Below are positions 1 through 21,674 of a stretch of 64,000 bases of DNA, in pieces (the stretch's first letter is position 1; the number at the start of each line of letters is the position of its first letter). This DNA is from Rhizobium sp. (GTDB lineage Bacteria > Pseudomonadota > Alphaproteobacteria > Rhizobiales > Rhizobiaceae): NCBI GenBank assembly GCA_002796995.1, contig PEKW01000005.1, forward strand, positions 512,892-576,891, written 5' to 3'. A program made the translations under genes and the position numbers. Below the pieces are notes generated by a model, which saw only the letters and a list, made by a program, of their open reading frames with translations, was not told the origin of the DNA and did not search any database.

Positions 1-414
1 CGCCCCCGACAGCTCGGAAGGGGGAGCGCCGACGGCAAAAGCCAGGAGCGCTTCGTCGGACATATCCGTTTCCGTCCCGGCGGCCAGGTAGCCGCCGGCT
101 GCAAACAGGGCGACGACGACGGCCATGCTTGCCGCTGTCGCCGGGATCGGCCACGATCGAGCAACCATCGTCGGGCCAAAGGTTCGGCCCCTGGGCTTGG
201 CAAGTCTCGCCATCACCTGACGCGCAAGAGCCCGCTCGTCAGTCGGCATCCTTGCCGCCTCGAGTACGAGACGGTCGAGCCTTTCATCTTCGCCGAGGGC
301 GTCCTCTCCGTGCGCAGCAAGAAACTGCGACGCCTCCTGACGAAAGGGCGCCGGCCAGGACGCCACCTCGTCTCCAAATCTGATCTTCAGGTCCTCGAAT
401 TCGCCCCTGTTCAT
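1..414 (-). CDS. Putative membrane-anchored anti-sigma factor (partial, runs off the window start); not in the ORF track
   Basis: ATG at 414 overlaps the sigma stop (ATGA). Manual translation MNRGEFEDLKIRFGDEVASWPAP...SWPIPATAASMAVVVALFAAGGYLA is open to position 1, with a short N-terminal domain then a hydrophobic segment. Confidence 0.7.
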   Translation of the reverse strand, partial: MNRGEFEDLKIRFGDEVASWPAPFRQEASQFLAAHGEDALGEDERLDRLVLEAARMPTDERALARQVMARLAKPRGRTFGPTMVARSWPIPATAASMAVVVALFAAGGYLAAGTETDMSDEALLAFAVGAPPSELSGA

Positions 415-1028
415 CTCGATACCCCTTCTTCTTGTGATTCATTGTCAGCCGTCGCCAGCCGGGCACGCAGCGTCCGCCTCGCCCGCACAAGCAACTGCTC
501 CACCGACCCGGCGCTGGTTCCCATGACCTCGGCGATCGCCGGCACGTCGAGGTCTGCGACCGCCCGCAGGAGGAGCGCCATGCGCTGCCGTTCCGGCAAT
601 TTGTCGAGACCGGTCCGCACGATGGCCAGTTCCTGGCGTGCGCCGACCAAAATATCCGCCTGGGGATCTTCCGAGGCAAAGACATCGTCCGTGTCTTCGA
701 AGCCCAGGAACATCCGAAATCGCCGCCAGCGCCGGACGTCGATGCATCGATTGGCGGCGATCCGGTAGATCCAGGTGGTCGCGCGTCCTTTCGCGCGATC
801 GAAACGCTTGGCGTTGTTCCAGATGGAGAAGAAGACATCCTGAACGACATCTTCCGCATCGTGGGTACCGCCGAGAAAGCGCGCGGCGAAGAGTTGCAGG
901 CCGCGTCCATGCCGGTCTATCAGCTGCCGGAGCGCAGGCTGCTCGCCCGCGGCGACACGGGCGAGAAGCTCCTCGTCATCGAGGCGCTCCGGCAGTCTTG
1001 CTGCTTCCGGGACACGCGCTGGGTTCAC
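411..1028 (-). CDS. ECF (sigma-70 group 4) RNA polymerase sigma factor
   Basis: Region 2 (DAEDVVQDVFFSIW...TTWIYRIAANRCID) and region 4 (LDKLPERQRMALLL...IAEVMGTSAGSVEQLLVRARRTL); GTG start with GGAG RBS. Confidence 0.95.
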   Translation of the reverse strand: MNPARVPEAARLPERLDDEELLARVAAGEQPALRQLIDRHGRGLQLFAARFLGGTHDAEDVVQDVFFSIWNNAKRFDRAKGRATTWIYRIAANRCIDVRRWRRFRMFLGFEDTDDVFASEDPQADILVGARQELAIVRTGLDKLPERQRMALLLRAVADLDVPAIAEVMGTSAGSVEQLLVRARRTLRARLATADNESQEEGVSR

Positions 1029-1034
1029 GCGGAC

Positions 1035-1412
1035 TTATCTCCAGTGGCGGCGAATGATGCCGACCGTCCCGCCTGGGCCGTTGTGGACGCCGACGGATCG
1101 CACGCGATAGGGACCTCGCGCCGTCGCGGTGTTGCCCGAATAAGTCCGGCCATCCGGACCGGTGGCCGTGTAACTGCGCCGGCAGCGGTCGACAATACCG
1201 TCACGGCAGGTCGAATTCGAGGTGTAGGTGCCACCATTCGGTCCGACGCGCGTCGTCTGTCCCGAATAGATATTGCCGTCCCTCGTCACGTTACGGGTGA
1301 TCTCACCGCCGCCCGGCGTATTCCGCGTCCATTCGGCCGACAGGGCCTGGACCGGAACGAGCATTGCGACAAGCCCGAGCGTTGCAAACGTTGTCTTCCA
1401 GCCATCAATCAT
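1035..1412 (-). CDS. Secreted Gly/Thr/Arg-rich hypothetical protein with short beta-hairpin-like repeats
   Basis: 3' half of ORF 1035..1652; GAGGAG RBS; signal-peptide-like N-terminus; repeats GPNGGTYT / GPDGRTYS / GPGGTV. Confidence 0.7.
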   Translation of the reverse strand: MIDGWKTTFATLGLVAMLVPVQALSAEWTRNTPGGGEITRNVTRDGNIYSGQTTRVGPNGGTYTSNSTCRDGIVDRCRRSYTATGPDGRTYSGNTATARGPYRVRSVGVHNGPGGTVGIIRRHWR

Positions 1413-1464
1413 CGTCATCTCCTCGTTGCTCTTCAATTTTCTTGGGTTGCCGCCGCGGCCAGCC

Positions 1465-1872
1465 TCAACGGTTGAACAGAATGCCGCGGATGACGAGAAA
1501 CTCGGCGTCCGACAGCTTGCCGTCCCCGTCCCGGTCGGCGAGATCGAAAAGCGGCGTGCGGGCTTGAAACTCGGCTGCCGACACATTGCCGTCGCCACTG
1601 GTGTCGAACCGTCGCATCTGAACGCCGAGGAACGCCTGCATCGCGATGGCATGATCCATGATCGCGTCCCGGAAGCGTTCCGTTTCGTCTTCGTCGATGG
1701 CGCCGTCTCCGTTGCTGTCGAGCCGGGCGAACAATTGCGCTCGGGCCGCGCGCACCTCGTCGCGCGAAAGGGCGCTGTCCTTGTTCTGATCGAGCCGCTG
1801 CAGGACAGGCAAACTCGTTTCAGCCTCTGCCGAGAACGCCGGCATCGAAAGCGGCACGATGAGCGCCGCCAT
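1465..1872 (-). CDS. Secreted EF-hand calcium-binding protein (start approximate)
   Basis: Four EF-hand-like loops (DQNKDSALSRDE, DSNGDGAIDEDE, DTSGDGNVSAAE, DRDGDGKLSDAE) after a signal-peptide-like segment. Confidence 0.85.
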   Translation of the reverse strand: MAALIVPLSMPAFSAEAETSLPVLQRLDQNKDSALSRDEVRAARAQLFARLDSNGDGAIDEDETERFRDAIMDHAIAMQAFLGVQMRRFDTSGDGNVSAAEFQARTPLFDLADRDGDGKLSDAEFLVIRGILFNR

Positions 1873-1955
1873 CAGGGCGTATGGCTTCTGTCTGATTGAT
1901 CGTGGTCCTCTTGTTGCGTTGTTTCCGACTGCCGATCGGCAGCTACACCGACTGA

Positions 1956-1983
1956 TACGGCGCGCCGGCGAGCCTCCTACGCG
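1956..1983 (-). promoter_or_regulatory. Putative ECF promoter CGCGTAGGAG-N14-CGTA driving the leftward operon
   Basis: Same motif and spacing as at 2056..2083 on the opposite strand; CGTAGG-N16-CGTA fits ECF -35/-10 geometry. Confidence 0.65.
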
Positions 1984-2055
1984 GTCGTCGGTCGATTTTC
2001 GCAGGCCGTGTGTGCAGCGCTGATCGGAGGCCATCGGACAAAAAAGGAGAGACCA

Positions 2056-2083
2056 CGCGTAGGAGCCGCGGTTCGCGCGCGTA
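2056..2083 (+). promoter_or_regulatory. Putative ECF promoter CGCGTAGGAG-N14-CGTA driving the rightward EF-hand/BA14K genes
   Basis: cgcgtaggag ccgcggttcgcgcg cgta, ending 46 nt before the ATG at 2130. Confidence 0.65.
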
Positions 2084-2129
2084 GAAGACGGCATTGACAC
2101 CAAACTCAGCCGTCGAAGGGGAGAAGAAA

Positions 2130-2555
2130 ATGAATGTGAAACTGCTTGCCGGCGTGATGCTTGTCGTGGCGACCGGAAGCGCCTGTGCGGCCGACGGACA
2201 GAAGGCCCGCAAGGCCTTTCGCCAGATGGATCTCAACGGCGACCGCGCGCTTCAGTTCACCGAGTTGCAGGCGGCGCGCGCCAACCTGTTCGATCGCCTG
2301 GACGCAAATCGCGATGGCGTACTCGACGAGGGTGAGGCGAAGGCCGCCCTGCAGCGCGTGAGAGAAGGCGGCAGGCTCCAGATGGCGACGGCGGAAGGCC
2401 TGGATACGCAGGCCCGGCGCATGGACGCCAACGGCGACGGCCGGGTTGCACGGGCCGAGTTCGCCCAGTTCATTCCCGATCGCCTTCTGCGCGCCGACAC
2501 GAATGGCGACCGCACTCTCTCCCTCCCGGAGCTCAAGGCTTTGCGTCAGCGCTAG
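2130..2555 (+). CDS. Secreted EF-hand calcium-binding protein
   Basis: Signal peptide MNVKLLAGVMLVVATGSACA; loops DLNGDRALQFTE, DANRDGVLDEGE, DANGDGRVARAE, DTNGDRTLSLPE. Confidence 0.88.
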   Translation: MNVKLLAGVMLVVATGSACAADGQKARKAFRQMDLNGDRALQFTELQAARANLFDRLDANRDGVLDEGEAKAALQRVREGGRLQMATAEGLDTQARRMDANGDGRVARAEFAQFIPDRLLRADTNGDRTLSLPELKALRQR

Positions 2556-2593
2556 GCACCGTCTCCACTCTCAACCATAGGACACCAGATCCC

Positions 2594-3013
2594 ATGAAGA
2601 AGATTGCATCCTTCTGCGCCGCAGCCATCCTGCTTGTGGCCGCTTCCGTCCCTGCTTCCGCCACTTCGGTTCGACGGCCGCCGGTGAGCGTGAACACGGA
2701 CATCGTCCAGGAAGTCAGCCACCGCCACGGCGTGGTCGTCGTTCGCGGCGTCCACTATTACAACGGCTTCCGCGGCGTCGTCGTGGCGCGGCCAGGCTAC
2801 CGCTATTACCGCGGTTTCTGGTTTCCCCCCGCAGCCTTTGCCGCCGGCGTGATCGTCGACAGGACCCTGGCCCATCCGGTACCGGCCGCCAGGCGGCTAA
2901 CGGCCGCGCATATCGATTGGTGCTATGCCCATTATCGGTCCTACCGCGCCTACGACAACAGTTTCCAACCCTATGCGGGCCCGCGCGAACAGTGCTGGTC
3001 GCCCTACAACTGA
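2594..3013 (+). CDS. BA14K family secreted protein
   Basis: C-terminal HIDWCYAHYRSYRAYDNSFQPYAGPREQC matches the BA14K motif; signal peptide present. Confidence 0.92.
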   Translation: MKKIASFCAAAILLVAASVPASATSVRRPPVSVNTDIVQEVSHRHGVVVVRGVHYYNGFRGVVVARPGYRYYRGFWFPPAAFAAGVIVDRTLAHPVPAARRLTAAHIDWCYAHYRSYRAYDNSFQPYAGPREQCWSPYN

Positions 3014-6568: not shown

Positions 6569-7311
6569 TGGGCCAACTCGCCGGATGTATGCCGGGCCGA
6601 ACCGAGATAGATCTTGCCGATCAGCGGATCGTCGGCGAGATCGGCGGGCCTGCCCTCGTGGCGGATCTTTCCCTCCGCCAGGATGACGGCCCGATCGGCG
6701 ATCGCCATCGCCGCCTTCACATTCTGTTCGACCAGGACGATGGTCACGCCATCGCCGTTGATCCGCTTCAGCATGGCAAACACCTCTCCGACGATCTTCG
6801 GAGAAAGCCCGGCGGAGGGTTCGTCGAGGATCAGCACAGGCGGATCGAGCGCCAGCGCCCGCGCGACGGCCAGCATCTGCCGCTGCCCTCCCGAAAGGGA
6901 GCCGGCCGATCGCGTCGGCTTCACGGCAAGATCCGGAAAGCGCTGGAACAGCGCCGCGATCTTGGCGGCGCGCTCGGCCTTGGGCAGAAGCGCGACGGCG
7001 ATCTGCAGGTTCTCCAGAATGCTCATGCTGGCGAAGACGTTTTCGGTCTGCGGCACGAAGGCCAGACCTTCCGCCAGCTTGCGGTGCGGCGCGACCCTGG
7101 TGATGTCGCGCCCGTCGAGATGGATCGTGCCGGAATGGACCGGCACCATGCCGGCAATCGCCTTGACGAAGGTGGACTTGCCGGCGCCGTTCGGCCCGAG
7201 GAGAATGACCAGCTCCCCCTTGCCCACGGAGAAATCCACGCCGCGAACGATCGGCAGGTCGGGCTCGTAGCCGGCCACCAGCGATGTCGTCGAAAGCACG
7301 GGACCGGTCAC
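6565..7311 (-). CDS. ABC ATP-binding protein (LivF-like)
   Basis: Walker A GPNGAGKS, signature LSGGQ, Walker B LILDEP. Confidence 0.93.
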   Translation of the reverse strand: MTGPVLSTTSLVAGYEPDLPIVRGVDFSVGKGELVILLGPNGAGKSTFVKAIAGMVPVHSGTIHLDGRDITRVAPHRKLAEGLAFVPQTENVFASMSILENLQIAVALLPKAERAAKIAALFQRFPDLAVKPTRSAGSLSGGQRQMLAVARALALDPPVLILDEPSAGLSPKIVGEVFAMLKRINGDGVTIVLVEQNVKAAMAIADRAVILAEGKIRHEGRPADLADDPLIGKIYLGSARHTSGELAQ

Positions 7312-8120
7312 ACGCCGCCTCCCAGATAGGCTTCTATCACCGCGGGATTGGAAGCGACCTCCGCAGGCGTGCCCTGCGCCAGCGGCCTGCCGAGCGCCAT
7401 GGCGACGACGCGCGAGCAGAGCCGCGAGACCATGTCCATGTTGTGCTCGATCAGCAGGATGGACTTTCCCTGCGCATTGAGTGCCACGACCCGTTCGATG
7501 ATCACCTCAAGCAGAGCCGGGTTCACGCCGGCTGCCGGTTCATCGAGCAGGATCACCTGCGGATCGGCCATCAGCACGCGCGCCAGTTCCAGAAGCTTGC
7601 GCTGGCCGCCCGAAAGCACGCGCGCCGGCTTGTGGGCAAGCCGCGACAGCGTGACGAACTCCAGAAGGCCAAGCGCCTTTTCCAGCGCCGCCTTCTCTTC
7701 GCGGCGTACGATGCCTGGCATAAGGAAATTGGCAAACAGCCGCTCGCCATGCTGTTTCTGGGCGCCGACCAGCAGGTTCTCGAGCACGCTCATCTCGGAA
7801 AACGGTCGCGGGATCTGGAAGGTACGGGCCACGCCGTGGGCAATGCGCCGTTCGGGCGGCTCGCCGGACACTTCGCGGCCGCCGATCCATATCTCGCCCG
7901 AACTGGGCCTGAGGCTGCCGGCCAGCAGATTGAACATGGTGGTCTTGCCGGCACCGTTCGGGCCGATCAGTCCCACCATTTCGCCTTGGGCCACTGCCAG
8001 CGACATGTCGGAGACGACCGTCAGGCCATCGAACCGCTTCGTCAGGTGCCGTGCCTCGATGGCAGCCGGCGCTGCGGTCCTCATGACCGGCGCGGGCGGA
8101 TGGAGGGTTTCGGCATGCAT
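7308..8120 (-). CDS. ABC ATP-binding protein (LivG-like; start approximate)
   Basis: GPNGAGKT, LSGGQRK, ILLDEPAAGVNP, VIEAYLG. Confidence 0.93.
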   Translation of the reverse strand: MHAETLHPPAPVMRTAAPAAIEARHLTKRFDGLTVVSDMSLAVAQGEMVGLIGPNGAGKTTMFNLLAGSLRPSSGEIWIGGREVSGEPPERRIAHGVARTFQIPRPFSEMSVLENLLVGAQKQHGERLFANFLMPGIVRREEKAALEKALGLLEFVTLSRLAHKPARVLSGGQRKLLELARVLMADPQVILLDEPAAGVNPALLEVIIERVVALNAQGKSILLIEHNMDMVSRLCSRVVAMALGRPLAQGTPAEVASNPAVIEAYLGGGV

Positions 8121-8152
8121 CGTCAAAAAGGGGCCTTGATCTGATCGGTGAT

Positions 8153-8164
8153 GTTTGATCAAAC
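8153..8164. promoter_or_regulatory. Palindrome GTTTGATCAAAC, candidate GntR operator
   Basis: Perfect 12-bp palindrome in the divergent spacer between the LivG-like gene and gntR. Confidence 0.5.
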
Positions 8165-8220
8165 TTTACCGCAGAACCAAAATCAACCGATATTTGCTCA
8201 AAGGCGCACCAGTGGCAGGA

Positions 8221-8934
8221 ATGACGGAACCAGTCGGTCCGACGGATGACCTCCTCACCCCCGTCGGGCGCGAGACATTGCAGGACCGTGTCTACGACCA
8301 GCTGCGCCGGACATTGATCAATGGCGGCTTTGCCGCGGGCGACATGCTGCGCATCGTCGATCTGGCGGACCGGCTGAAGACCAGCACCATGCCGGTGCGC
8401 GAGGCGCTGGGCCGGCTCGTCTCCGAACAGGCGCTTGAGGCCCTCCCCAACCGCACCGTTCGGGTGCCCCTGATCACGCGGGAACGGCTCGACGATCTGG
8501 AGCGCGCCCGTATCCTGATCGAAGGCCGCCTGGTGGCGCTGGCCTGCAAGCGGCTGACGGCCGACGATCTGGAAGGTCTGAAACAGCTCAACCGCGACTG
8601 CGAGGCCGCCTTTGCAAGGCACGGCCAGGACATCGGCCCGGTGACCTCGGAAATCAACCAGCGCTTCCATTTCCAGATCTACCGGGCCGCGGGCTCCCAG
8701 GTGCTGATCCCCATGGTGGAAAGCCTGTGGCTGCAGTCCGGTCCGGTGGTGCGCCAGGCCGCCCATATTCACGACGAACAGGGTGGACTTGCCGCAACCA
8801 ACCACCACTGGACGATGGTGGCAGCGCTCGAGGCCGGAGACGAGCCGGCCGCCGTCCAGGCGCTCGCCAACGACATCGGCCGGTCCTTCGACCTGGTGCG
8901 CGGCCGTCTCGACGCCGGCGAAGAGGCGGCATGA
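8221..8934 (+). CDS. GntR family (FCD domain) transcriptional regulator
   Basis: ETLQDRVYDQLR...STMPVREALGRL HTH; C-terminal NQRFHFQIY...H FCD motif. Confidence 0.92.
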   Translation: MTEPVGPTDDLLTPVGRETLQDRVYDQLRRTLINGGFAAGDMLRIVDLADRLKTSTMPVREALGRLVSEQALEALPNRTVRVPLITRERLDDLERARILIEGRLVALACKRLTADDLEGLKQLNRDCEAAFARHGQDIGPVTSEINQRFHFQIYRAAGSQVLIPMVESLWLQSGPVVRQAAHIHDEQGGLAATNHHWTMVAALEAGDEPAAVQALANDIGRSFDLVRGRLDAGEEAA

Positions 8935-8944
8935 GGGCAAAGCC

Positions 8945-9292
8945 ATGAGCCATACCGACGACATGTTCGAACTTTTCGACCTGCGGGTCGACGTGGTGAT
9001 ACCGGAGAATGGCGCCGTCTATTGCGGCGCCAAGCCCGGAGACTATTTCGAGCTGCGCGGCGAGATGCTGCATCTGCCGGCGGGCCAGGGAATATCGATC
9101 TATTCGCTCGCGTCCGTCCTGCCACTCTTGGCCGCCAAGCAGCGCCCCACCCATGCGTATGACTGGATGACGACGGACAGCGACATCGCCTGCCCCGATC
9201 CCAATTGCTCGACCCGGTTGAGGATCAGGCGGACCGGCCTTCGCCGCTTCAGCCATGCCGCAACGACGGCCGTGCCCCTTGAGGAAAAGTAG
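8945..9292 (+). CDS. TIGR04076-like small Cys-containing protein
   Basis: YCGAKPGDYFEL...IACPDPNC pattern recognised from this uncharacterised family. Confidence 0.75.
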   Translation: MSHTDDMFELFDLRVDVVIPENGAVYCGAKPGDYFELRGEMLHLPAGQGISIYSLASVLPLLAAKQRPTHAYDWMTTDSDIACPDPNCSTRLRIRRTGLRRFSHAATTAVPLEEK

Positions 9293-9297
9293 TGACC

Positions 9298-10344
9298 ATG
9301 CAGCGCATCACCATCGCCCCCGGTTATGAAATTTCCCGTGTCATTCGCGGCGGCTGGCAGCTGGCCGGCGGACATGGCGCCGTCGACGGCGAGACGGCGA
9401 TCGACGACATGGTGGCCTTTGCCGATGCCGGCATCACCACCTTCGACTGCGCCGACATCTATACCGGCGTCGAGGAACTGATCGGTCGCTTTCGCCTGCG
9501 CTACCGCGACCTGCGCGGACAGGCCGCCCTGGATCGCATCCGCGTGCACACCAAGTTCGTGCCGGACCTCGGCGTCCTGCCGACCATCGACAAGGCCTAT
9601 GTGGAAGGCGTCATCGACACCTCGCGCAGGCGTCTCAACCTGGAGCGCCTTGATCTCGTGCAGTTCCACTGGTGGGACTATGACATGCCCGCCTGGCTCG
9701 ACACGCTCGGCTGGCTGAACGAGTTGAAGGAGGACGGCCGGATCGACAAGATCAGCGGCACCAATTTCGACAGCGACCACGTGCTCGCGATCCTCAATGC
9801 CGGGATTCCGTTCACCTCGCTGCAGCTGCAATATTCGCTGCTCGATCAACGGCCGGAAAAGCGCATGGTCGATCTGGCCGCCCGACATGATTTCGCGCTC
9901 TTCTGCTACGGCACCGTGGCCGGCGGCTTTCTCTCCGATCGCTGGCTGGGCAAGCCTGAACCGGAGCATCCGCTCGAGAACCGCTCGCTCACCAAATACA
10001 AGCTGATCATCGACGATCTCGGCGGCTGGGATCTTTTCCAGGGACTGCTTTCGGCCCTGCGCCAGATCGCCGACCGGCACCAAACCGACATCGCCACGAT
10101 CGCCAGCGCCGCCATGCTGCGCCGGCCGGGCGTGTCTGCCGTCATCGTCGGGGCGCGCAACCGCGCTCACCTCGCCTCGAACCTGGCGATCGCCGACATC
10201 GTCCTGTCGGATGCAGATCTCGGCGAAATCGACGCCGCCCTGGCCGGGGCACGAGACCTCGAAGGAGACGTCTACACGCTCGAGCGCGACCGTACGGGGC
10301 GTCACGGCAGCATCATGAAATACAATCTCAACAAAGGGGAATGA
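9298..10344 (+). CDS. Aldo/keto reductase (QFHWW subtype)
   Basis: GGWQLAGGHG, FDCADIYTGVE, HTKF, DLVQFHWWDY, LQYSLLDQRP. Confidence 0.92.
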   Translation: MQRITIAPGYEISRVIRGGWQLAGGHGAVDGETAIDDMVAFADAGITTFDCADIYTGVEELIGRFRLRYRDLRGQAALDRIRVHTKFVPDLGVLPTIDKAYVEGVIDTSRRRLNLERLDLVQFHWWDYDMPAWLDTLGWLNELKEDGRIDKISGTNFDSDHVLAILNAGIPFTSLQLQYSLLDQRPEKRMVDLAARHDFALFCYGTVAGGFLSDRWLGKPEPEHPLENRSLTKYKLIIDDLGGWDLFQGLLSALRQIADRHQTDIATIASAAMLRRPGVSAVIVGARNRAHLASNLAIADIVLSDADLGEIDAALAGARDLEGDVYTLERDRTGRHGSIMKYNLNKGE

Positions 10345-10363
10345 AATGGAAAAGGGGAACAAC

Positions 10364-11629
10364 ATGAAACGACTGGTACTTGCCTCGACTATGCTTGCCG
10401 GGCTGTCGCTCGCCGCCTCACCGGCCCTGTCGCAGGCCTGCGACATCACCGTCGGCGTGGTGATGGAACTGACCGGCCCTGCCGGCGAATACGGCAAGGC
10501 GGGCGCGAAATCCGTCGAAATGGCCTTCCGCGACTTCAACGAGGCGGGCGGCGTCGGCGGCTGCAAGCTCGTCATGGACACGCGCGACAGCCAGAGCCAG
10601 GGCAATGTCGCGGTCGACCAAGCGACCCAGCTCGTCAACATCAAGAAGGTGCCGGTCATCATCGGCGGCATCATTTCGTCGGTATCGATCCCGATCCTCA
10701 CCTCGGTGACGGCGCCGGCCGGCGTGGTCCAGGTCTCGCCCGCATCCTCCTCGCCGACGCTGACCGCACTCGGGCGCGACGGCAAGACCAATGGGGTCTT
10801 CTTCCGCACCATCACCTCGGACGCGCTGCAGGGCACGGCAGCCGCCAAATACGCGCTCGACCAGGGCCTGAAGAAGATCGCCATCATTCACGTCAACAAC
10901 GACTTCGGCAACAATCTGATGGCCGAGTTCACCGCCGCCTACACCAAGCTCGGCGGCACGATCACCTCGACGACGCCCTATAACGAGAAGCAGGCGAGCT
11001 ATTCCTCCGAAGCCTCCGTGGCCATGGCCGGCGAACCGGATGCGCTCTACCTGATCTCCACACCGGTCGACGGCGCCACCATCGCCCGCGCGTGGATCTC
11101 CGGCGGCGGCGTGCAGAAATTTCTGCTGAATGACGGCATGAACTCCAAGGATTTCATCACCAGCGTCGGCCCCCAGTATCTGAACGAAGCCTATGGCACG
11201 TCGTCGGGCACCACGCCGACGGCCTCGACCGAATATTTCAACGCCAATTACGAACAGTTCTCGGGCGGGATCGCGCCGTCCGCTCCGGCCGCCGACCGGT
11301 CCTATGACGCCGGCGCCATCGTCGCCCTGGCGATCGCCAAGGCCGGCAGCGCCGACAAGGCCGCCATCAGGGCCGCCATCTCCGAGGTGACGGCGCCGGG
11401 CGGGACGCCGATCCATGCCGGAAAGGCGGAGTTCGAAAAGGCGTTGGCGCTGATGAAGGACGGCAAGCCGGTCAAGTATGAAGGCGTCATCGGCCCGGTC
11501 AGCTTCGACCAGTACGGCGACATCACCGGCCCCTTCCGCCTGTGGAAGATCACCGATGGCGAGGTGACCACGGTCGGCGAGATGCCGGCGGAAGACGTCT
11601 CCAAGATCAAGGAATCGCTCGCCAAATAA
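10364..11629 (+). CDS. HAAT-type ABC substrate-binding protein
   Basis: Signal peptide; ELTGPAGEYG; SPASSSPTLT; FFRTITSDALQG. Confidence 0.92.
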   Translation: MKRLVLASTMLAGLSLAASPALSQACDITVGVVMELTGPAGEYGKAGAKSVEMAFRDFNEAGGVGGCKLVMDTRDSQSQGNVAVDQATQLVNIKKVPVIIGGIISSVSIPILTSVTAPAGVVQVSPASSSPTLTALGRDGKTNGVFFRTITSDALQGTAAAKYALDQGLKKIAIIHVNNDFGNNLMAEFTAAYTKLGGTITSTTPYNEKQASYSSEASVAMAGEPDALYLISTPVDGATIARAWISGGGVQKFLLNDGMNSKDFITSVGPQYLNEAYGTSSGTTPTASTEYFNANYEQFSGGIAPSAPAADRSYDAGAIVALAIAKAGSADKAAIRAAISEVTAPGGTPIHAGKAEFEKALALMKDGKPVKYEGVIGPVSFDQYGDITGPFRLWKITDGEVTTVGEMPAEDVSKIKESLAK

Positions 11630-11648
11630 GCGGGTTTGCACAGACGAC

Positions 11649-11681
11649 AAAGCGGGCGGCCTGCAAAGGGCCGCCCGCTTT
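11649..11681 (+). terminator. Intrinsic terminator
   Basis: aaagcgggcggcc / ggccgcccgcttt stem after the substrate-binding protein gene. Confidence 0.8.
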
Positions 11682-11969
11682 CGTGCCGGGATCATCGTCA
11701 ATCGTCCGAAAGCCTGCGCTGATCCGGTCAGACAAGCTGAGTGTCGGGCGCGCCATGGATCGCCACGCCGAAGCGGCCCCGGTCGGGCAAAGCATCCGCC
11801 TCCCCTGCCGCTGCACCAGATCTTCGCGAAGCGAGCAACCGACCACAGCGTCTCGCGCCCGGCCAAATCACCGCCCGCGGGCGTTACGCAAGGCGATCCG
11901 GACCTTCGCAAGCACGAGGACGTCACCGACGCCCGTTCGCGCCGGCCGTCAGGATCGACAGAGCCGCAC

Positions 11970-12341
11970 TCAGGCTCCGACGGTCTCGCTCACATCATCC
12001 AGCAGGAAATACACCACGACGTACTTCGTCGAATACGGCCGGCCGCTCTCCGAAACGCTTTCCACGGTTCCACCGTCGGCCGGGTGCCATTGGCCATAGT
12101 GCGGATTGTTGACGATCAGCGTCACAGCCTTGCCCGAAAACTTCCCCTGAAGCCTATGACGCGCCTCGGCGAATGGCCAGATCCGCTCATAGTCCTCCTG
12201 GGTGAGGCGCACCTTCAGCGCCTTGCGGTGGATCGCCTCACCGGCCGATCCGTCTTCGCGCTCCGTCGCCGGACTATCAAGCGTCACTTCCTCCGCCTCA
12301 TCGAAAATGAAGCGGAATTCATCGGGCCACATGCGTCTCAT
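11970..12341 (-). CDS. Hypothetical protein (123 aa)
   Basis: Strong GGAGGAG RBS before ATG 12341; MRRMWPDEFRFIFDEAEEV...KYVVVYFLLDDV; 3' part of ORF 11970..12584. Confidence 0.75.
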   Translation of the reverse strand: MRRMWPDEFRFIFDEAEEVTLDSPATEREDGSAGEAIHRKALKVRLTQEDYERIWPFAEARHRLQGKFSGKAVTLIVNNPHYGQWHPADGGTVESVSESGRPYSTKYVVVYFLLDDVSETVGA

Positions 12342-12613
12342 CAAATTGCTCCTCCCGAGCGTTTCCCGCTGAAGTGTACCGCGTCCGCCGCCGGAAACAA
12401 CGCATGAATCCATCGCCTTGCCCCGACCCACCGGAAAATCGCGGCCGCAGGCTCGGTTGTGCGATGGCCCGTGCTCCCGGCACATCCGAGCCCTCCGTAG
12501 CATCAACGTCGGCTTTGAGTGCCGGAAAAGCGACGTGGCCCACGATATTCCCCACCTCATCGAGGCGGAGATCCGGTGAGACAAATCGAAGAAAAACGTC
12601 GGAAAATGGAAAT

Positions 12614-12628
12614 TGGTGGGCCCGGAGG
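12614..12628 (-). repeat. att-like copy of the last 15 nt of tRNA-Ile2 (CCTCCGGGCCCACCA)
   Basis: Exact match to 14556..14570. Confidence 0.9.
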
Positions 12629-12725
12629 CTACCGGAATGCCAGGAGTTCTGGGCTTTCGGGAGAGTTCGATGGCACGTCACCCCCATAAAGACCCCACAT
12701 TTCTCTCAACCCAAATCCGGTTAGT

Positions 12726-13346
12726 TCAACTACCCTCCTTGGGCGGAGTCGTGATTCTGTCGGACGCCATTGTTTCCATCCTTTTAGCGACCTGAACAGG
12801 TGGCTCTCCATGTCCGCGCCATGAGTAGTGGTTTCCCGCGCTGTCGAAGGCGATCCTGAAATTCGGATAGTCGTTCCCAATGCGACGCATGAGATCCGTG
12901 TAGGCTGCGATCGGCACAAGCCAGAGGTGGCTATCATTGCGATCGGATGTCACAAAGAACCCGCTGACCCGGAGATCGCCCTCAGCGTAAACGCACTCCG
13001 AAAACACCCTACTATGGACAATGATGTCCAGCAGGTAGCCTACACCGAGCGCGCAGGTCGAGGGCGCTTCCACATCGAACGCTTCCCAGAAATTATGTCG
13101 CTTCCACCAATCCAGCTTCTGCCCTTGGAGAAGTCCATACCTTTCCGCTCGCAGGCTGCGCCCCTCGACATCGCTTGATACCTTCTCGCATTCGATGAGT
13201 TTCCGCATCGCGAAAGCCGAGACGAACACCTTTCTCTCGATCAGCATGGAGCCGCGCTCCGTGGCCCGCGTCTTTGCCGCCCACCGCTCTATAAGATCGG
13301 CATCGTTGAGCAACTGGTCTTTCCAGGGTGCGCTTTCGGCGATCAC
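12726..13346 (-). CDS. Hypothetical protein (206 aa), islet cargo
   Basis: GTG start overlaps the upstream stop (GTGA); globular-looking sequence (ERKVFVSAFAMRKLIE...LLDIIVHS...FFVTSDR). Confidence 0.8.
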   Translation of the reverse strand: MIAESAPWKDQLLNDADLIERWAAKTRATERGSMLIERKVFVSAFAMRKLIECEKVSSDVEGRSLRAERYGLLQGQKLDWWKRHNFWEAFDVEAPSTCALGVGYLLDIIVHSRVFSECVYAEGDLRVSGFFVTSDRNDSHLWLVPIAAYTDLMRRIGNDYPNFRIAFDSAGNHYSWRGHGEPPVQVAKRMETMASDRITTPPKEGS

Positions 13347-13996
13347 ACCTTTCGACCTCGATGTTCGGCAATTTGATGAGGGAGGTCGTATACGATTTTC
13401 AGCAGCATACTTAGATACTCGACCACTGCCAAAGCATCAGCGGCTAAAGTCCCAGACGCGCCCGGCATCGGATGCGCATTGCTGTTTCCAATCTCCCTCA
13501 CCTCATGCGCCCAATCCACCATGATCGGCGGCAATATGCCCTTGCTACCGAGGTCTTTGATCTCCTTAAACAGGCTGTCGCCTTCAGCCTCCTGATAACG
13601 AAGGATCAACTGCACGGCGCTTCGTGCCATCAGTGCAGCGGCGTCGTAGTTTGACGCCTCAACGCTTCGTTTCGCTTGCAGCCAATATCGCCCAACATCG
13701 TCAGGCCAGTGCTCGGGCCATCTCGTCGTATTGCGAGGCCACGGAACTTGGTGGATTCCGACAAGGCCAGAATTTCCCATGCCCCAAAATACGGAAGTCA
13801 GATTACCGCACTGCTGACAGACCAAAACGTCATAATGTAACTCTTTCGACTTATCCGGCTTCGTCTTGGATACCCTGCTTTCAAAGCCAAACCGACCGAC
13901 TTCTCCGCAGAAGCCGCAGGTAACTTCATTAAGCGGCAGGTCGCCGTCGTAGCTTCGGTATCCCCTTCCTTCCCCTAGATCCCACCAACTCATCAC
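13343..13996 (-). CDS. Zn-ribbon plus DUF4145 (HEPN-like) domain protein
   Basis: CGFC...CQQC; DAAALMARSAVQLIL, SLFKEIKDL, WAHEVREIGNSNAH (RxxxNxxxH). Confidence 0.82.
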   Translation of the reverse strand: MMSWWDLGEGRGYRSYDGDLPLNEVTCGFCGEVGRFGFESRVSKTKPDKSKELHYDVLVCQQCGNLTSVFWGMGNSGLVGIHQVPWPRNTTRWPEHWPDDVGRYWLQAKRSVEASNYDAAALMARSAVQLILRYQEAEGDSLFKEIKDLGSKGILPPIMVDWAHEVREIGNSNAHPMPGASGTLAADALAVVEYLSMLLKIVYDLPHQIAEHRGRKV

Positions 13997-14398
13997 TATG
14001 CCCTCTAACGCCGGGACTCGTTTCGTTCCCGATTCATCGGCTAAGCATGTGTTATTTTACTGATGCATTCAACGTAACCGCGTTTCGGCGTCGTGATCAT
14101 TCATACGCCGCTCGGCCTCACGCTTCCGTTCTTCCAAAACGCTTTGCCATTCTTCATATGACATTCCAGAAAAAGCGCTTGGTCATTGAAGATCGCTCTC
14201 ACGTATCCAGGAATATTCTCCTGGAGCATTGGGGATTGGCATCAGCGCGTCGGTATAAGTTGAACGATCCGGACTTGCACCGGCAACGTTTGGACACGAA
14301 CCCGCAACCATCAGACTGCAATACATGCTTCCGACTTGGGCCCTTGGATCGCTGGACTCCAACGTTTAGGTATAAACGGGTTGAGTAATCGCCTGGAG

Positions 14399-14444
14399 CG
14401 TCACCCCCCGGCGTTACCCCCGCATAAGCCTCAAGGGGTAACGC
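14399..14444. repeat. Cluster of CGT(C/T)ACCCC motifs (two direct, one inverted); a further copy at 12676..12685
   Basis: cgtcaccccc 14399, cgttaccccc 14412, ggggtaacg 14435, cgtcaccccc 12676. Confidence 0.7.
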
Positions 14445-14555
14445 GGTACTCGAACGCGGGGGCATCCTGCGCCTTTGATACCCTCAAAACCTCTGGATTG
14501 AGGCATTTGTGGGTTGCTAAACCATTGATTTTACTATTCACCGCAAAAGAGCGGA

Positions 14556-14631
14556 TGGTGGGCCCGGAGGGACTCGAACCCCCAACCAAGCGGTTATGAG
14601 CCGCCGGCTCTAACCATTGAGCTACAGGCCC
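14556..14631 (-). tRNA. tRNA-Ile2, anticodon CAT (lysidine type)
   Basis: GGGCCTGTAGCTCAATGGTTAGAGCCGGCGGCTCATAACCGCTTGGTTGGGGGTTCGAGTCCCTCCGGGCCCACCA; 76-nt cloverleaf with encoded CCA. Ile2 rather than Met is inferred from its resemblance to alphaproteobacterial Ile2. Confidence 0.93.
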
Positions 14632-14786
14632 AGCCCGGCGTCTGGCGCCGCAGGCGGCGGGCAATGGCACCCGTGCCTTGGCTGACGCTCTAGCCGAATT
14701 CGCCACAGGCGACAAGTCTCCGCCGCAATGGCTTCACAATCGCCCGTCATCAAGGCAAGTGTAAGGGACGCCAATTCGAGGAAACC

Positions 14787-15527
14787 ATGATGAACCATCT
14801 GAAGACAACGAGGCTTGCGCTCGCCGCCACCCTCTCCTGCGCCATGCTCCTGCCGCTGTCAGCCTTCGCCGCGGAGCCGGAAATCCGCGAGGCGACGATC
14901 ATCGTCTCGGGCGAAGGAGATGCGGCGATCGCACCCGACATGGCGGTGCTCAGCCTCAGCGTCGTGCGCGAGGCCGAAACCGCGGCCGAGGCGCTGAAGG
15001 CCAACAGCCAGGCCATGGCCGAGGTCATCGCCGACCTGAAAGCCAAGTCCATCGCCGACCGCGACATCCAGACCTCCGCCTTCTCCGTCGATCCGCTCTA
15101 TCGCCAGGACAAGGCCGACGACGACACCTATGAGGCGCCGGTGATCGTCGGCTACCGGGTCACCAACGGGCTGACGCTGCGGGTGCGCGACCTCACCATG
15201 CTCGGCGGGCTGATCGATGCGGCCGTCAAGCTCGGCGTCAACCAGGGCGGCGGGATCACCTTTACCAACGACAATCCGGAGGCGGCGATCACCGAGGCCC
15301 GCAAGAAGGCCGTGGCCGAAGCAATGGAGAAGGCGAAGGTGTTGACCGAAGCCGCCGGCGTCAAGCTCGGCCGCGTCGTCGAGATCAGCGAAAACTTCGC
15401 CCGCCCGATGCCGCAGCCGATGTACCGCGCGGCCATGGCCAAGGAAATGGCCGATGCCGCCCCGATCGCAGCCGGCGAGAACGAGTATACGGTGACCGTC
15501 AACATCACCTACGCCATCGCGCAATAA
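14787..15527 (+). CDS. SIMPL/DUF541 (BP26/Omp28-like) periplasmic protein
   Basis: Signal peptide; IIVSGEGDAAIAPDMA, DIQTS, AVKLGVNQGGGITF, PIAAGE. Confidence 0.92.
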   Translation: MMNHLKTTRLALAATLSCAMLLPLSAFAAEPEIREATIIVSGEGDAAIAPDMAVLSLSVVREAETAAEALKANSQAMAEVIADLKAKSIADRDIQTSAFSVDPLYRQDKADDDTYEAPVIVGYRVTNGLTLRVRDLTMLGGLIDAAVKLGVNQGGGITFTNDNPEAAITEARKKAVAEAMEKAKVLTEAAGVKLGRVVEISENFARPMPQPMYRAAMAKEMADAAPIAAGENEYTVTVNITYAIAQ

Positions 15528-15593
15528 CGACGACGTGCTACCCGCCTGACATCTTTCGGGCGGGCAGACGCGCTTCCGGACATCGTCAAAAGC

Positions 15594-15621
15594 AAAAGGC
15601 CCGCCTTCCGGCGGGCCTTTC
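15594..15621. terminator. Bidirectional intrinsic terminator
   Basis: aaaggcccgcc-ttcc-ggcgggccttt between convergent genes. Confidence 0.8.
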
Positions 15622-15640
15622 TCGTTCGAACTGTGGACGA

Positions 15641-16009
15641 TCAGTAGGTGATGACGGGGCAGCCGCGCACATTGGCGAAAACCATGCGGTCGAACTCGCC
15701 ATGGCGGAAGCCGGCGACGACGATCCGGCGCGGCGTCACATTGTGGACGCGGGCGCGGCGCAGGCCGCTCCAGCGGGCCTCTTCCACCGCGCGGCGCGGC
15801 GAGCAGCCTTCGGGACGGTGGCGGCGCGGCTGGTAGCCCCAGCCCGGACGCGGACCGTAGCGGTCGTGGTGGTTGTAGCCGGGCTCTCCGCCGCCGACAT
15901 AGATGCCCCAGCCGAATTCCTGGCCGGCGGCGGCGGTCGACACGGTGCCGACGGTGGAAGCGAAGGTGACGAGGGCAACGAGGCCGAATTTTGCAAGCAT
16001 GCCGGTCAT
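15641..16009 (-). CDS. Secreted hypothetical protein (Gly/His/Arg-rich linker, two Cys)
   Basis: Signal peptide, GGAG RBS; CSPRRAVEEARWSGL...FANVRGCP. Confidence 0.75.
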   Translation of the reverse strand: MTGMLAKFGLVALVTFASTVGTVSTAAAGQEFGWGIYVGGGEPGYNHHDRYGPRPGWGYQPRRHRPEGCSPRRAVEEARWSGLRRARVHNVTPRRIVVAGFRHGEFDRMVFANVRGCPVITY

Positions 16010-16155
16010 GGGGTTCTCTCCTGTGGCTGTCCGGCCTTGGCCGGGGTGACGCTCCCGCTTTCCTCAGCGATTGGGAAGAGATTGCCCGATCATGCCTGAA
16101 TGCGGTCCGAACCGCTTATTCAGCGATCGTTCATGCAGGAAAGGCGGTCATCGGT

Positions 16156-16578
16156 TCAACCGGCGATGTGCAGGATCACCTCGCGCCGATGCGGCAGATC
16201 CCGGTGCTCGAACAGGTAGAGCCCCTGCCACGTGCCCAGCAACAGGCGCCCGGCGGAAAACGGGATGCCGATCGACACCTGCGTCAGCGCCGCCTTGATA
16301 TGCGCCGGCATGTCGTCCGGCCCCTCCTGCCGATGCTCGATCCAGTCCATCACCGGATCGGAGGATGGCGGGACCAGACGACGGAAGAAGGCCTTGAGAT
16401 CGCGCTGGACCGACGGATCGGCATTCTCCTGGATCAGCAGGGAACAGGAGGTGTGGCGCACGAAGACCGTCAGCAGACCCTCCTCCGCGTCCTCGGCCTC
16501 GAGGAAGGCTACCGCCTCACGGGTGAACTCGTAGAGCCCCTGCCCTTCGGTCCGAATCACTATCCGCCGCAAGGCCAT
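16156..16578 (-). CDS. yjbQ: UPF0047/YjbQ family protein
   Basis: VRHTSCSLLIQENADP, EGPDDMPAHIK, LGTWQGLYLFEHR. Confidence 0.92.
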   Translation of the reverse strand: MALRRIVIRTEGQGLYEFTREAVAFLEAEDAEEGLLTVFVRHTSCSLLIQENADPSVQRDLKAFFRRLVPPSSDPVMDWIEHRQEGPDDMPAHIKAALTQVSIGIPFSAGRLLLGTWQGLYLFEHRDLPHRREVILHIAG

Positions 16579-16864
16579 GCTCTCCTCCATCGCGTTTCGC
16601 CGGCGCGCCGCCGCTATGGCTCTACATGGGCGCGATCGCCCCGGGGTCAAGCAAGACACCGGGGAAGGCCTGAGGGAAATGTCCCGGCGCCCGCTCATCC
16701 ATCAGCAAGACATGATATAAATCCCGACTATATTGACGTTCGTCATAAACACGCGCGAAAAACACCAGAAATGGCCATGCTGCGAAAGTACTGCTTTAAC
16801 TTTATGGAAAGGCGCTCATGATTGTCTTTGGAAATATACTGAATATCCTCGCACAGGCCATTTC

Positions 16865-19021: not shown

Positions 19022-19133
19022 CGCAGTCAAAAGCGTGTCGCGGCCGAGGCCGGTGCATAACATCGCCGCGGCCTTTGCGTGCCGCACGCAACGCGGTAAT
19101 CTCCCGCCAACACCGTGAGGGAGAGGAAACACC

Positions 19134-19610
19134 ATGTCGAACGACCGAGACCTGCTCGACACCCTGGCCGGCCAAGAAGACGCCCTGGTCTTCAAGGCCT
19201 TCAGCGAAATCACCGCGATCGAGGTGGGCGAGCACCTGCTGCGCGCCGCGCGCGCCGGCGACCTGCCGGTGGTGATCAACATCCGCACGGCCGACCGCGT
19301 TCTGTTCCACGCCGCCCTGCCCGGCTCCTCGCCGGACAATGACGAATGGGCGCGCCGCAAGAGCAATGTCACGCTGCGCTTCCACCGTTCCTCCATGCGC
19401 GTCGGCGAAAACTACCGGCTCAAGGGCCGCGAAGTCTGCGTCGAACTGGGGCTCGATCCGATCGACTATGCGAGCCACGGCGGCAGCTTTCCCGTGCGCG
19501 TCGCCGGGACCGGCGTGGTTGCCGCCATCACCGTTTCGGGGCTGACCTCCGAGGACGATCACGGCCTGATCGTACGGGTGCTGGAAGACTATCTTTCGGA
19601 AGAACAATAG
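19134..19610 (+). CDS. UPF0303/DUF336 heme-degrading-like domain protein
   Basis: PGSSPDNDEWARRKSN, YASHGGSFP, TVSGLTSEDDH. Confidence 0.88.
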   Translation: MSNDRDLLDTLAGQEDALVFKAFSEITAIEVGEHLLRAARAGDLPVVINIRTADRVLFHAALPGSSPDNDEWARRKSNVTLRFHRSSMRVGENYRLKGREVCVELGLDPIDYASHGGSFPVRVAGTGVVAAITVSGLTSEDDHGLIVRVLEDYLSEEQ

Positions 19611-19632
19611 GCTCCCGAGAGCCGGATGATCG

Positions 19633-20007
19633 TCAAAGCGCGCTCGACAGGTAAAGGCTGAGCCGGGTCAGGTGATCGTCTTCGCCTTCGAAGACCAGGA
19701 CGCAGGGCAGCGAGAACCGCGCGCCCTCACCCGATCCGGACGTGCCCGCGCTGTCGGTGCCGTCGATCGTGCCGTCATAGGCGCCGCGCAGGCCGGCCTC
19801 GTCGGCCATGGCCACGCCATTGGCGAAGCGCGCGTCGTGACGCAGCAGGTAGGCCGACAGTGTGTCGCGGATCGAGTCGAAGCCGATGACCCGCTGGCCG
19901 TCCGGCATGTCGAGCACGGCATCGGCATCGAACAGGGCTTCGAGGGCGGCAAAATCGCGCTGGTTGAGCGCCTCGATGGCGCGCGACATCTGCTGTCGGA
20001 TGGGCAT
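19633..20007 (-). CDS. SnoaL/NTF2-like protein
   Basis: IEALNQRDFAALEALFDADAVLDMP...G...IR pattern. Confidence 0.8.
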   Translation of the reverse strand: MPIRQQMSRAIEALNQRDFAALEALFDADAVLDMPDGQRVIGFDSIRDTLSAYLLRHDARFANGVAMADEAGLRGAYDGTIDGTDSAGTSGSGEGARFSLPCVLVFEGEDDHLTRLSLYLSSAL

Positions 20008-20075
20008 GGACGAATTCCTCCGCTGGACTGGTCCAGTGCACTTAGGGCAGCACACACGCCTCGGCAATGGCGGCT

Positions 20076-20975: not shown

Positions 20976-21068
20976 AAGTAAGCAAACCTAATCTGGTGGA
21001 AGAAATATTAGCTTCTCTAAATTTCACACGATCGCTAGTCAAGGCAACGTCTTATCCGGAGCCTTGTC

Positions 21069-21674
21069 ATGCTGATTGCCGCCACCGCCGGTTTTTTCCT
21101 CGGCCTGAGCCTGATCGTCGCGATCGGGGCGCAGAACGCCTTCGTGCTGCGTCAGGGGCTGCGGCGCAGCCACGTCTTCGCCATCTGCCTCACCTGTGCG
21201 GCCTCGGACGCGGCGCTGATCGCCGCCGGCGTCGGCGGGCTCGGCAAGGCCATCGCCGCCCTGCCCTGGCTGACACCCCTCATGCGCTATGGCGGGGCCG
21301 CCTTTCTTGCGTATTACGGGCTTCGCAGCCTTCGGGCGGCGCTGAGCGGCAATGCGGCGCTGAAGCCGGAAGGAGAGGCGCAGGAAAGCCTGGCCGCAGC
21401 GCTTTTTACCTGCCTGGCGCTCACCTGGCTCAACCCGCATGTCTATCTCGACACCGTGGTCCTGCTCGGCTCCATCTCCACGCAGTATCCGGGCCAAGGT
21501 CTGGCCTTCGGCCTCGGCGCCACGACCGCTTCCTTCCTCTTCTTCTTTTCCCTGGGCTTCGGCGCGCGCTATCTGCGCCCGCTTTTCGCCCGTGCCGCCG
21601 CCTGGCGCGTGCTCGACGGGCTGATCGCGCTGGTGATGGGATCGATCGCCATCAATCTGGTGTGGAGCAGTTGA
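21069..21674 (+). CDS. lysE: LysE/ArgO amino-acid exporter
   Basis: LIVAIGAQNAFVLRQG; LTWLNPHVYLDTV. Confidence 0.92.
   Translation: MLIAATAGFFLGLSLIVAIGAQNAFVLRQGLRRSHVFAICLTCAASDAALIAAGVGGLGKAIAALPWLTPLMRYGGAAFLAYYGLRSLRAALSGNAALKPEGEAQESLAAALFTCLALTWLNPHVYLDTVVLLGSISTQYPGQGLAFGLGATTASFLFFFSLGFGARYLRPLFARAAAWRVLDGLIALVMGSIAINLVWSS

Follow-up and report, generated by a model that had tools for sequence, protein, structure and literature searches.

Which genes does an extracytoplasmic function (ECF) sigma factor control when it is encoded among secreted EF-hand proteins, and to which signal might it respond? The question is raised by the first 3,013 nt of a 64,000-nt stretch of Rhizobium sp. 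DNA (contig PEKW01000005.1, positions 512,892 to 576,891; this whole stretch is hereafter called the window), where two divergent EF-hand genes are separated by a spacer carrying two copies of a bipartite motif, and where the leftward EF-hand gene heads the operon of an ECF sigma factor. Extracytoplasmic sensing by ECF sigma factors is understood for few groups, and periplasmic calcium sensing is largely open. The locus offers a clean and minimal test case: one sigma factor, a candidate anti-sigma factor of an undescribed family, a CnrX-like protein devoid of metal ligands, two predicted private promoters with a distinctive -35 element (GCGTAGG), and four predicted secreted outputs, two of which are EF-hand proteins with four sites each. 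On the evidence of sequence and predicted structure, we consider it likely that this locus is a CnrYXH-type envelope signalling module wired to its own seven-gene regulon; its architecture is held with good confidence, the identity of its signal with low confidence.

Predicted twin promoters in the divergent spacer

Each strand of the spacer between the divergent EF-hand genes carries one copy of CGCGTAGGAG-N14-CGTA, the minus strand at 1956-1983 and the plus strand at 2056-2083. The minus-strand copy reads CGCGTAGGAGGCTCGCCGGCGCGCCGTA (the reverse complement of 1956-1983) and the plus-strand copy CGCGTAGGAGCCGCGGTTCGCGCGCGTA, with the same N14 spacing in both, just as the original prediction had described from the letters of the DNA. 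The core CGTAGGAG-N14-CGTA was matched twice in the window against 0.00 matches expected (100 shuffles), and a search of the whole 4.77-Mb genome, a check that the same prediction had suggested, returned only these two sites, with 0 matches for the reversed-pattern control. In a genome-wide position-weight scan, carried out with a two-block weight matrix built from 23 sites at 14 loci, both sites scored 29 bits, compared with 18 for the runner-up in the genome and 20.9 for the top site of a reversed-genome control. In these high-GC genomes, patterns containing GCGTAGG were several-fold less frequent than their backward readings, a scarcity that would help to account for promoter specificity.

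Both copies display the geometry of an ECF promoter (GTAGG-N16/17-CGTA), a promoter class in which spacers of 16-17 nt are usual. The predicted leftward promoter, PL (1955-1983, minus strand), would consist of a -35 element CGCGTAGGAG at 1983-1974, with its core GTAGG at 1980-1976, a 16-nt spacer, and a -10 element CGTAT at 1959-1955. Its rightward counterpart, PR (2056-2085, plus strand), would have the same -35 element at 2056-2065, with its core GTAGG at 2059-2063, again a 16-nt spacer, and a -10 element CGTAGA at 2080-2085. Transcription is predicted to start near 1948-1950 on the minus strand and near 2089-2091 on the plus strand, and no sigma-70-like promoter was detectable in the spacer between the two genes.

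The arrangement is conserved among relatives. Eight close loci were compared, with sigma factors of 62-92% identity (Phyllobacterium trifolii, two Chelatococcus species, an Aquamicrobium metagenome-assembled genome, two further Hyphomicrobiales and two other genomes), and GTAGG-N15-17-CGTA was present once per strand in the equivalent spacer of all eight; the original prediction had been prepared to fall if the motif were missing upstream of orthologous EF-hand genes. In an alignment of seven spacers, most invariant columns lie in GCGTAGGA on each strand and in the PR -10 element (TACG columns), and the longest unbroken stretches of invariance belong to the two -35 elements between them. Beyond these, only the rightward gene's start codon and four isolated positions are invariant, the spacer having otherwise diverged. 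The distance from GTAGG to CGT is 16 nt in 20 of the 23 sites and 17 nt in the other 3. Across orthologs, the two copies stand between 25 and 79 nt apart, which fits two separate promoters rather than one palindromic operator.

Judged from loci with altered gene content, the motif follows the sigma factor rather than the EF-hand genes. In L086, where the genes of the leftward EF-hand protein and of the 127-aa protein next to it are missing, the motif lies directly before the sigma gene; in L089, whose sigma factor is 43-44% identical to the one studied here, a single GCGTAGGAG-N14-CGTT precedes the sigma gene and there is no EF-hand gene nearby. One copy stands before an EF-hand/sigma/anti-sigma/PF13801 operon in L087 and in L092-L094, the latter being three genomes of another order with sigma identities of 43-44% by BLASTP and 46-47% by genome search. 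Among 401 genomes of the order of the window, the strict pattern GCGTAGGA-N15-16-CGTA had 57 scattered matches, and a divergent strict pair occurred only in this genome and in one other (G385), a third (G269) having one strict copy and one CCGTAGG copy; all three carry the sigma factor. A loose pattern, GCGTAGG-N15-17-CGT, gave many matches in seven relatives, fewer than its reversed control, and was uninformative except for the second conserved site in genus g208 described below.

Since position, orientation and internal spacing are all conserved in orthologous loci, the twin motif is best taken as two ECF-type -35/-10 promoters tied to the sigma factor, and both promoters very probably depend on the sigma factor encoded next to them. 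No third site in the genome scores as high as these two, and therefore no further target is predicted; the regulon would comprise seven local genes, encoding the two EF-hand proteins, a beta-meander protein, a BA14K protein and the triad of sigma factor, anti-sigma factor and CnrX-like protein. The proposal that this sigma factor reads CGTAGG-N16-CGTA and controls a compact regulon is thus sustained by conservation as regards an ECF-type promoter pair tied to it, and the predicted regulon is indeed compact and local. The promoter prediction is precise enough for direct reporter tests.

Several further observations concern these promoters and their leaders. The extensions of the -10 element differ by class, with CGTAT before the sigma operon and CGTAGA before the divergent EF-hand gene in 7 of 9 loci (window included), the exceptions being CGTAGG in L006 and CGTAAG in L008; this suggests that distinct strengths or start points have been selected for. 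In pairs of genomes from two other families (G212:C13:24227 with G048:C81:27743, and G170:C175:833 with G089:C23:7475), which have no close ortholog of the sigma factor, isolated GCGTAGGA-N16-CGTA sites with almost the same spacers were seen, and these may be promoters of related CnrH-like sigma factors. In genus g208 of another order, a second conserved site, GCGTAGGAGAA-N-CGTATC, lies about 10 kb from the module (L102 2676-2702 and L103 2609-2635, both minus strand), intergenic and before an operon of a resistance-nodulation-division (RND) adaptor and permease, so that the motif connects the family with an RND pump in a further lineage. The scores assign this pump to the multidrug (HAE-1) type, with 551 bits for RND_permease_2 against 222 bits for the CzcA type, and the homologous sigma factor of g208 probably drives it as well. 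Most 5' leaders open with a GC-rich hairpin whose sequence differs among orthologs, such as CTGCCGATCGGCAG at 1926-1939. When the leaders of the window (1897-1950, minus; 2087-2129, plus) were compared with their equivalents in L004-L009, L085 and L086, RNAalifold on a MAFFT alignment gave no consensus pairs, no Rfam match was obtained, and single-sequence folds had a mean z-score against shuffles of only -0.69; an RNA element in the 5' untranslated region is not claimed.

The proposed sigma, anti-sigma and CnrX-like triad

The leftward unit reads as a five-gene operon encoding, in order, EF-hand protein L, a 127-aa secreted protein, the sigma factor, the anti-sigma candidate and a PF13801 protein, given that the sigma stop and the anti-sigma start overlap by 4 nt (ATGA), that the anti-sigma stop overlaps the start of the fifth gene (GTGA), and that a terminator, a hairpin with a T-tract, lies 88 nt after the fifth gene. 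The original prediction had recognized the first four genes, and its description stands (Pfam agrees where it has a family, the 127-aa protein and the anti-sigma candidate matching none); the fifth, CnrX-like gene, which lies outside the window, had escaped it.

The sigma gene (411-1028, minus strand, GTG start) encodes a CnrH-like protein of 205 aa with Sigma70_r2 at residues 36-102 (E 6.8e-18) and Sigma70_r4_2 at residues 137-187 (E 1.1e-14), and the TIGR02937 sigma70-ECF model scores 85.6 bits against a cut-off of 42.9. By these domains it belongs to the ECF (group 4) sigma-70 factors; the best NCBIfam model, PRK05602, falls below its own cut-off. Its closest solved relative is CnrH (4cxf, E 3.9e-23), followed by SigW (E 7.4e-16), and its nearest paralog in the genome is 31% identical.

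The anti-sigma candidate, a protein of 149 aa, is encoded at 1-414 (minus strand) and extends 33 nt past the window start, the first 138 aa being inside the window and the last 11 codons and stop lying left of base 1. A cytoplasmic N-terminus, one transmembrane helix (approximately residues 88-113) and a periplasmic tail of about 35 aa are predicted, and in an alignment of 9 orthologs two stretches are conserved, MxxxEFxxLxxRFGxDxxxWPxPxRxEA at the N-terminus and ALLAFAxG in the periplasmic part. The protein has no Pfam (E up to 1) or NCBIfam match, nor any PDB match with either the single sequence or the 9-sequence profile. In a collection of 5.8 billion proteins, its family amounts to no more than 51 clusters, each of them labelled hypothetical. 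The protein has 0 Cys and one His, with no zf-HC2 match at E up to 1; lacking Cys, it is not of the zinc-binding anti-sigma (ZAS) type. Position, topology and conservation make it the candidate anti-sigma factor of the module.

The fifth gene lies just left of the window on the minus strand and encodes a protein of 140 aa with an N-terminal membrane anchor, predicted to be periplasmic, which matches PF13801 (Metal_resist) with 38.4 bits against a cut-off of 29.2; it is kept in 8 of the 8 close loci. Its best sequence match in the PDB is CnrX, over the full length (E 0.03). An AlphaFold2 model has a predicted local distance difference test score (pLDDT) above 85 for residues 50-130 (means of 10-residue blocks) and of 71 in the last block, and a fold search of the PDB with this model placed chains of CnrX and NccX on top, with ZraP among the matches. 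Two blocks, YP(D/E)(D/E)VRxEFR and AMxDVRxAT, are conserved in 7 orthologs; together with the ALLAFAxG of the anti-sigma candidate, they could be the signal carriers.

Predicted secreted outputs

EF-hand protein L, the first product of the leftward operon (1465-1896, minus strand; Pfam EF-hand_5/1/6/7, E 1e-14 to 1e-17), has a signal peptide and four canonical 12-residue loops, DQNKDSALSRDE, DSNGDGAIDEDE, DTSGDGNVSAAE and DRDGDGKLSDAE. EF-hand protein R (2130-2555, plus strand; EF-hand_1/6/7/5, E 1e-14 to 1e-16) is 36-37% identical to it, and likewise carries a signal peptide and four loops, DLNGDRALQFTE, DANRDGVLDEGE, DANGDGRVARAE and DTNGDRTLSLPE. Loops were called canonical when paired and bearing D at position 1, D or N at 3, D at 5 and E at 12, as is the case for four loops in each protein, and Pfam EF-hand_1/5/6/7 are above their cut-offs. 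EF-hand R was present in 8 of the 8 close loci. The start of EF-hand L seems to be an ATC (1896-1894), 9 nt after GAGGA, the alternative being an ATG at 1872. The P. trifolii ortholog has an ATG exactly where EF-hand L has the ATC (MTQRSYAL against IRQKPYAL), and a start at 1872 would have no Shine-Dalgarno sequence and would leave the signal peptide without a charged n-region; the gene would thus either use a rare AUC start or be poorly translated in this strain.

The second leftward gene (1035-1418, minus strand) encodes the secreted 127-aa protein, which has GPxGxTYS-type repeats and two invariant Cys, matches no Pfam or NCBIfam model, and is present in 6 of the 8 close loci. Its family comprises about 100 clusters, all hypothetical and nearly all from Hyphomicrobiales. 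AlphaFold2, run with 6 orthologs, predicted an eight-strand antiparallel beta meander (mean pLDDT 79.5; strands within residues 26-126). A fold search of the PDB returned nothing better than E 0.086, only de novo barrels and porins at about 0.09 or worse, and we assign no function to this protein. The second rightward gene (2594-3013, plus strand) encodes a secreted BA14K-family protein (PF07886, E 5.3e-13; 49.1 bits against a cut-off of 26). Pfam thus agrees with the rightward EF-hand/BA14K unit as first described. The BA14K gene is found in at least 3 of the 8 orthologous loci and in the plasmid copies, and another gene takes its place in L086.

Relation to known systems

The closeness of the sigma factor to CnrH, the CnrX-family protein and the position of PF13801 at +2 indicate that the locus is best read as a CnrYXH-type triad of sigma factor, anti-sigma factor and sensor. 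In the CnrYXH system of Cupriavidus metallidurans (ECF20, now ECF291), the sigma factor is CnrH, the anti-sigma factor CnrY and the periplasmic sensor CnrX. Both systems comprise a small single-pass anti-sigma factor (here a candidate) and a membrane-anchored PF13801/CnrX-family periplasmic protein, and both have a second promoter, here a predicted one, for output genes. The differences are also clear. Gene order is sigma, anti-sigma, sensor here and cnrY-cnrX-cnrH there; the anti-sigma candidate has 149 aa, against 95 aa in CnrY, and no sequence similarity to CnrY or to any PDB chain, the CnrH-CnrY entry included. The metal site of CnrX is formed by His42, His46, Glu63 and His119 (with Met123), whereas here His42 and His46 align with non-liganding residues. 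The outputs are predicted to be EF-hand proteins, the beta-meander protein and BA14K instead of an RND nickel/cobalt pump, and neither motif site in this genome precedes a pump; the g208 motif before an RND pump does parallel CnrH driving cnrCBA, although that pump is multidrug and not of the CzcA type. Autoregulation from an ECF promoter with a CGTAT-type -10 element, predicted here, is a further likeness, the verified -10 element of the CnrH promoter cnrYp being CCGTATA (PMC13492112).

Comparison with solved structures alone places the sigma factor in the ECF20-derived clade (ECF281/289/290/291). Of these, ECF281 and ECF290 are ECF20-derived groups defined by a heavy-metal-resistance PF13801 protein at +2 (Casas-Pastor et al., 2021; PMC7826278), and the order of sigma, anti-sigma (+1) and PF13801 (+2) genes seen here resembles theirs. 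ECF281 differs in having a zinc-finger anti-sigma factor at +1, in contrast to the Cys-free protein of this locus. ECF290 has an RskA-like anti-sigma factor there; no RskA hit was obtained here at E up to 1, and the N-in single-pass topology is compatible. We label the sigma factor as ECF20-derived and 281/290-like, the ECF290 label not being confirmed. The searchable literature yielded no characterised member of ECF281 or ECF290, and mentions ECF281, 289 and 290 only in PMC7826278.

A second point of comparison is found in Caulobacter vibrioides, where the gene of a Sec-exported protein with multiple EF-hands, CaBP, lies directly upstream of the ECF gene sigV (CCNA_02837); the pair is induced by EGTA and acid, each member influences the expression of the other, the membrane link of CaBP is left as a question mark, and no anti-sigma factor or sensor was identified (dos Santos and Simao, 2026; PMC13171946). 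The same paper describes the promoters GGAAA-N13-CGTTCA and, within a gene, GGAAGCTTCG-N16-GCTTCA, and calls the genes monocistronic (PMC13171946). The likeness lies in the gene layout, with an EF-hand gene upstream of an ECF sigma gene, one small gene intervening here; the two are directly adjacent in L008, L088, L090 and L092-L094. The Caulobacter system differs in having three EF-hands and no divergent second unit. The Caulobacter genome also encodes a PF13801 protein.

As small periplasmic proteins with four EF-hands and a partial match to the NCBIfam lanmodulin (LanM) model, EF-hand L and R also resemble LanM. That identity was rejected, as NF053806 scores 52.0 (L) and 45.4 bits (R) against a cut-off of 135. 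No EF loop here has Pro at position 2, a residue typical of LanM at that position.

In view of the CnrYXH paradigm, the groups with PF13801 at +2 (PMC7826278) and the Caulobacter EF-hand/ECF pair (PMC13171946), the original statement that no characterised system has this layout went too far. The locus opens no new category: the kind is catalogued, one related pair has been studied, and the novelty is moderate. What distinguishes the locus is the pair of divergent predicted promoters with a defined motif, the second EF-hand/BA14K unit, the undescribed anti-sigma family and the histidine-free CnrX-like protein.

Proposed mechanism, signal and alternatives

In the mechanism that we propose, the single-pass anti-sigma factor would hold the sigma factor at the membrane, and sensing would likely fall to the CnrX-like protein, probably in concert with the conserved tail that the anti-sigma factor extends into the periplasm; for the CnrX-like protein itself, we give a sensing role an even chance. 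Once released, the sigma factor would read the two divergent promoters GCGTAGGAG-N14-CGTA (GTAGG, a 16-nt spacer, CGTA). PL would drive EF-hand L, the beta-meander protein, the sigma factor, the anti-sigma factor and the CnrX-like gene, with positive autoregulation, up to the intrinsic terminator, and PR would drive EF-hand R and BA14K. A small regulon with no cross-talk candidates would suit an orthogonal expression switch.

Our best guess for the signal, offered tentatively, is periplasmic cation status, Ca2+ or another hard cation. A more specific proposal, which we consider rather unlikely, is that the EF-hand proteins are the ligand-sensing arm, their Ca2+-dependent binding to the CnrX-like protein or to the ALLAFAxG tail setting sigma release. 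If true, the module would be a periplasmic Ca2+ sensor that acts through proteins in the manner of calmodulin and feeds an ECF sigma factor and, having its own sigma factor, its own sensor and only two private promoters, a portable and orthogonal Ca2+-responsive cassette; such portability would agree with its spread to rhizobial megaplasmids and to a high-GC block carried by clinical gammaproteobacterial plasmids.

Several points weigh against the CnrYXH-type reading. The 23 sites were selected by pattern, and the invariance of GTAGG and CGT among them is thus partly circular. L088 and L090, with the same gene order and sigma factors 44-46% identical, have no clear motif, so the motif rule is not universal across the wider family. 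The anti-sigma candidate shows no detectable similarity to CnrY, RskA or any anti-sigma domain (ASD) model. The fold-search scores of the CnrX-like protein against CnrX are weak (E 0.2-0.6, TM-score 0.36-0.53), and no His or Cys is conserved among its 7 orthologs, which excludes a nickel/cobalt site of the CnrX style. Finally, the Caulobacter promoters are of another type, with a GGAA-type -35 element.

Among the alternatives, the one that best survives keeps the same architecture and changes the signal: a toxic compound or general envelope damage would be sensed, and the EF-hand proteins would take no part in sensing, serving instead as protective cation buffers or chaperone-like outputs. We regard this as possible, if somewhat doubtful. 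The multidrug pump behind the same motif in the other order speaks for it, as do the grouping of PF13801 with Spy/CpxP/ZraP-like stress proteins, ZraP being among our fold matches, and the absence of conserved metal ligands in the CnrX-like protein. On the other hand, an EF-hand gene heads the sigma operon in several lineages whose sigma factors are 43-47% apart, which is more typical of regulatory partners than of cargo, and the Caulobacter data tie an EF-hand protein to Ca2+ limitation and to sigma expression.

It is improbable that the two ECF-type promoters are read mainly by another sigma factor (EcfG or another ECF factor), with the adjacent sigma factor being one of the outputs. Such a dependence would recall the proposal that cabp and sigV belong to the SigT regulon in Caulobacter (PMC13171946), and CGTA/CGTT-type -10 elements are common to several ECF groups (PMC13492112). 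Against it, a motif confined in this genome to one locus would be strange for a general stress sigma factor; in the sample of 401 genomes, the pair turned up in carriers of the sigma factor only, and this factor has no close paralog in the genome. Moreover, the -35 element GCGTAGG is unlike the GGAAC consensus of EcfG, and the pair accompanies the sigma factor on plasmids into Gammaproteobacteria, where an alphaproteobacterial EcfG would not be expected. Least credible of all is that the GCGTAGGAG boxes serve as operators of a DNA-binding regulator, such as a dimeric repressor or activator, and that the real promoters are something else: the two boxes do form an inverted repeat with 15-nt arms of 87% complementarity, and the PR -10 region partly repeats the box (CGCGTAGAAG), yet CGTA always lies 16-17 nt past GTAGG, pointing at the gene, however far apart the arms stand, no regulator gene is conserved beside the module, the spacer has no detectable sigma-70-like promoter, and in L087, L089 and L092-L094 the operon is preceded by one copy only, without a palindrome.

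Flanking genes and distribution

Left of the leftward operon (L003; genome C30:509001-512337) lie a short-chain dehydrogenase/reductase gene, a LysR regulator gene and the gene of a 294-aa ECF sigma factor with a long C-terminal extension; the three occupy L003 6002-6886 (minus), 7604-8566 (plus) and 8529-9338 (minus), and are not conserved beside the module in relatives.

The module is accessory and often plasmid-borne. A sigma factor at least 69% identical was found in 3 of the 401 genomes of the order, and a match at E 1e-40 or better in 7; in a 400-genome sample of the class, no sigma factor matched at E below 1e-30 outside four families. Plasmid carriers include pSymA of several Sinorhizobium meliloti and S. 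medicae strains, as well as plasmids of Shinella and Chelatococcus, and the laboratory strain S. meliloti Rm41 is one of the strains with the module. A survey of ECF factors in S. meliloti 1021 mentions no ECF20-type sigma factor, EF-hand, BA14K or CGTA motif (PMC6180224).

The whole module, with both predicted promoters intact, also occurs on plasmids of clinical isolates of Acinetobacter (A. baumannii, A. nosocomialis), Pseudomonas (P. aeruginosa), Klebsiella (K. pneumoniae), Providencia and Vibrio. The clinical copy shares about 74% identity with the window and 85% with the pSymA copy of S. meliloti, and it sits at 11560-14549 of NZ_MH547561.1 (L099), and in the block at 7300-22060 of NZ_CP042557.1 (L100). 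On these plasmids the module lies inside a block of about 15 kb of soil-type genes with high GC content (58-71%), which also holds LysR, cupin, DJ-1/PfpI, second sigma, YciI, VOC and MATE genes; in L100 (plasmid pE47_001), this block adjoins Tn7-like tnsD/tnsE, a DDE transposase, a recombinase and aac(3)-IId.

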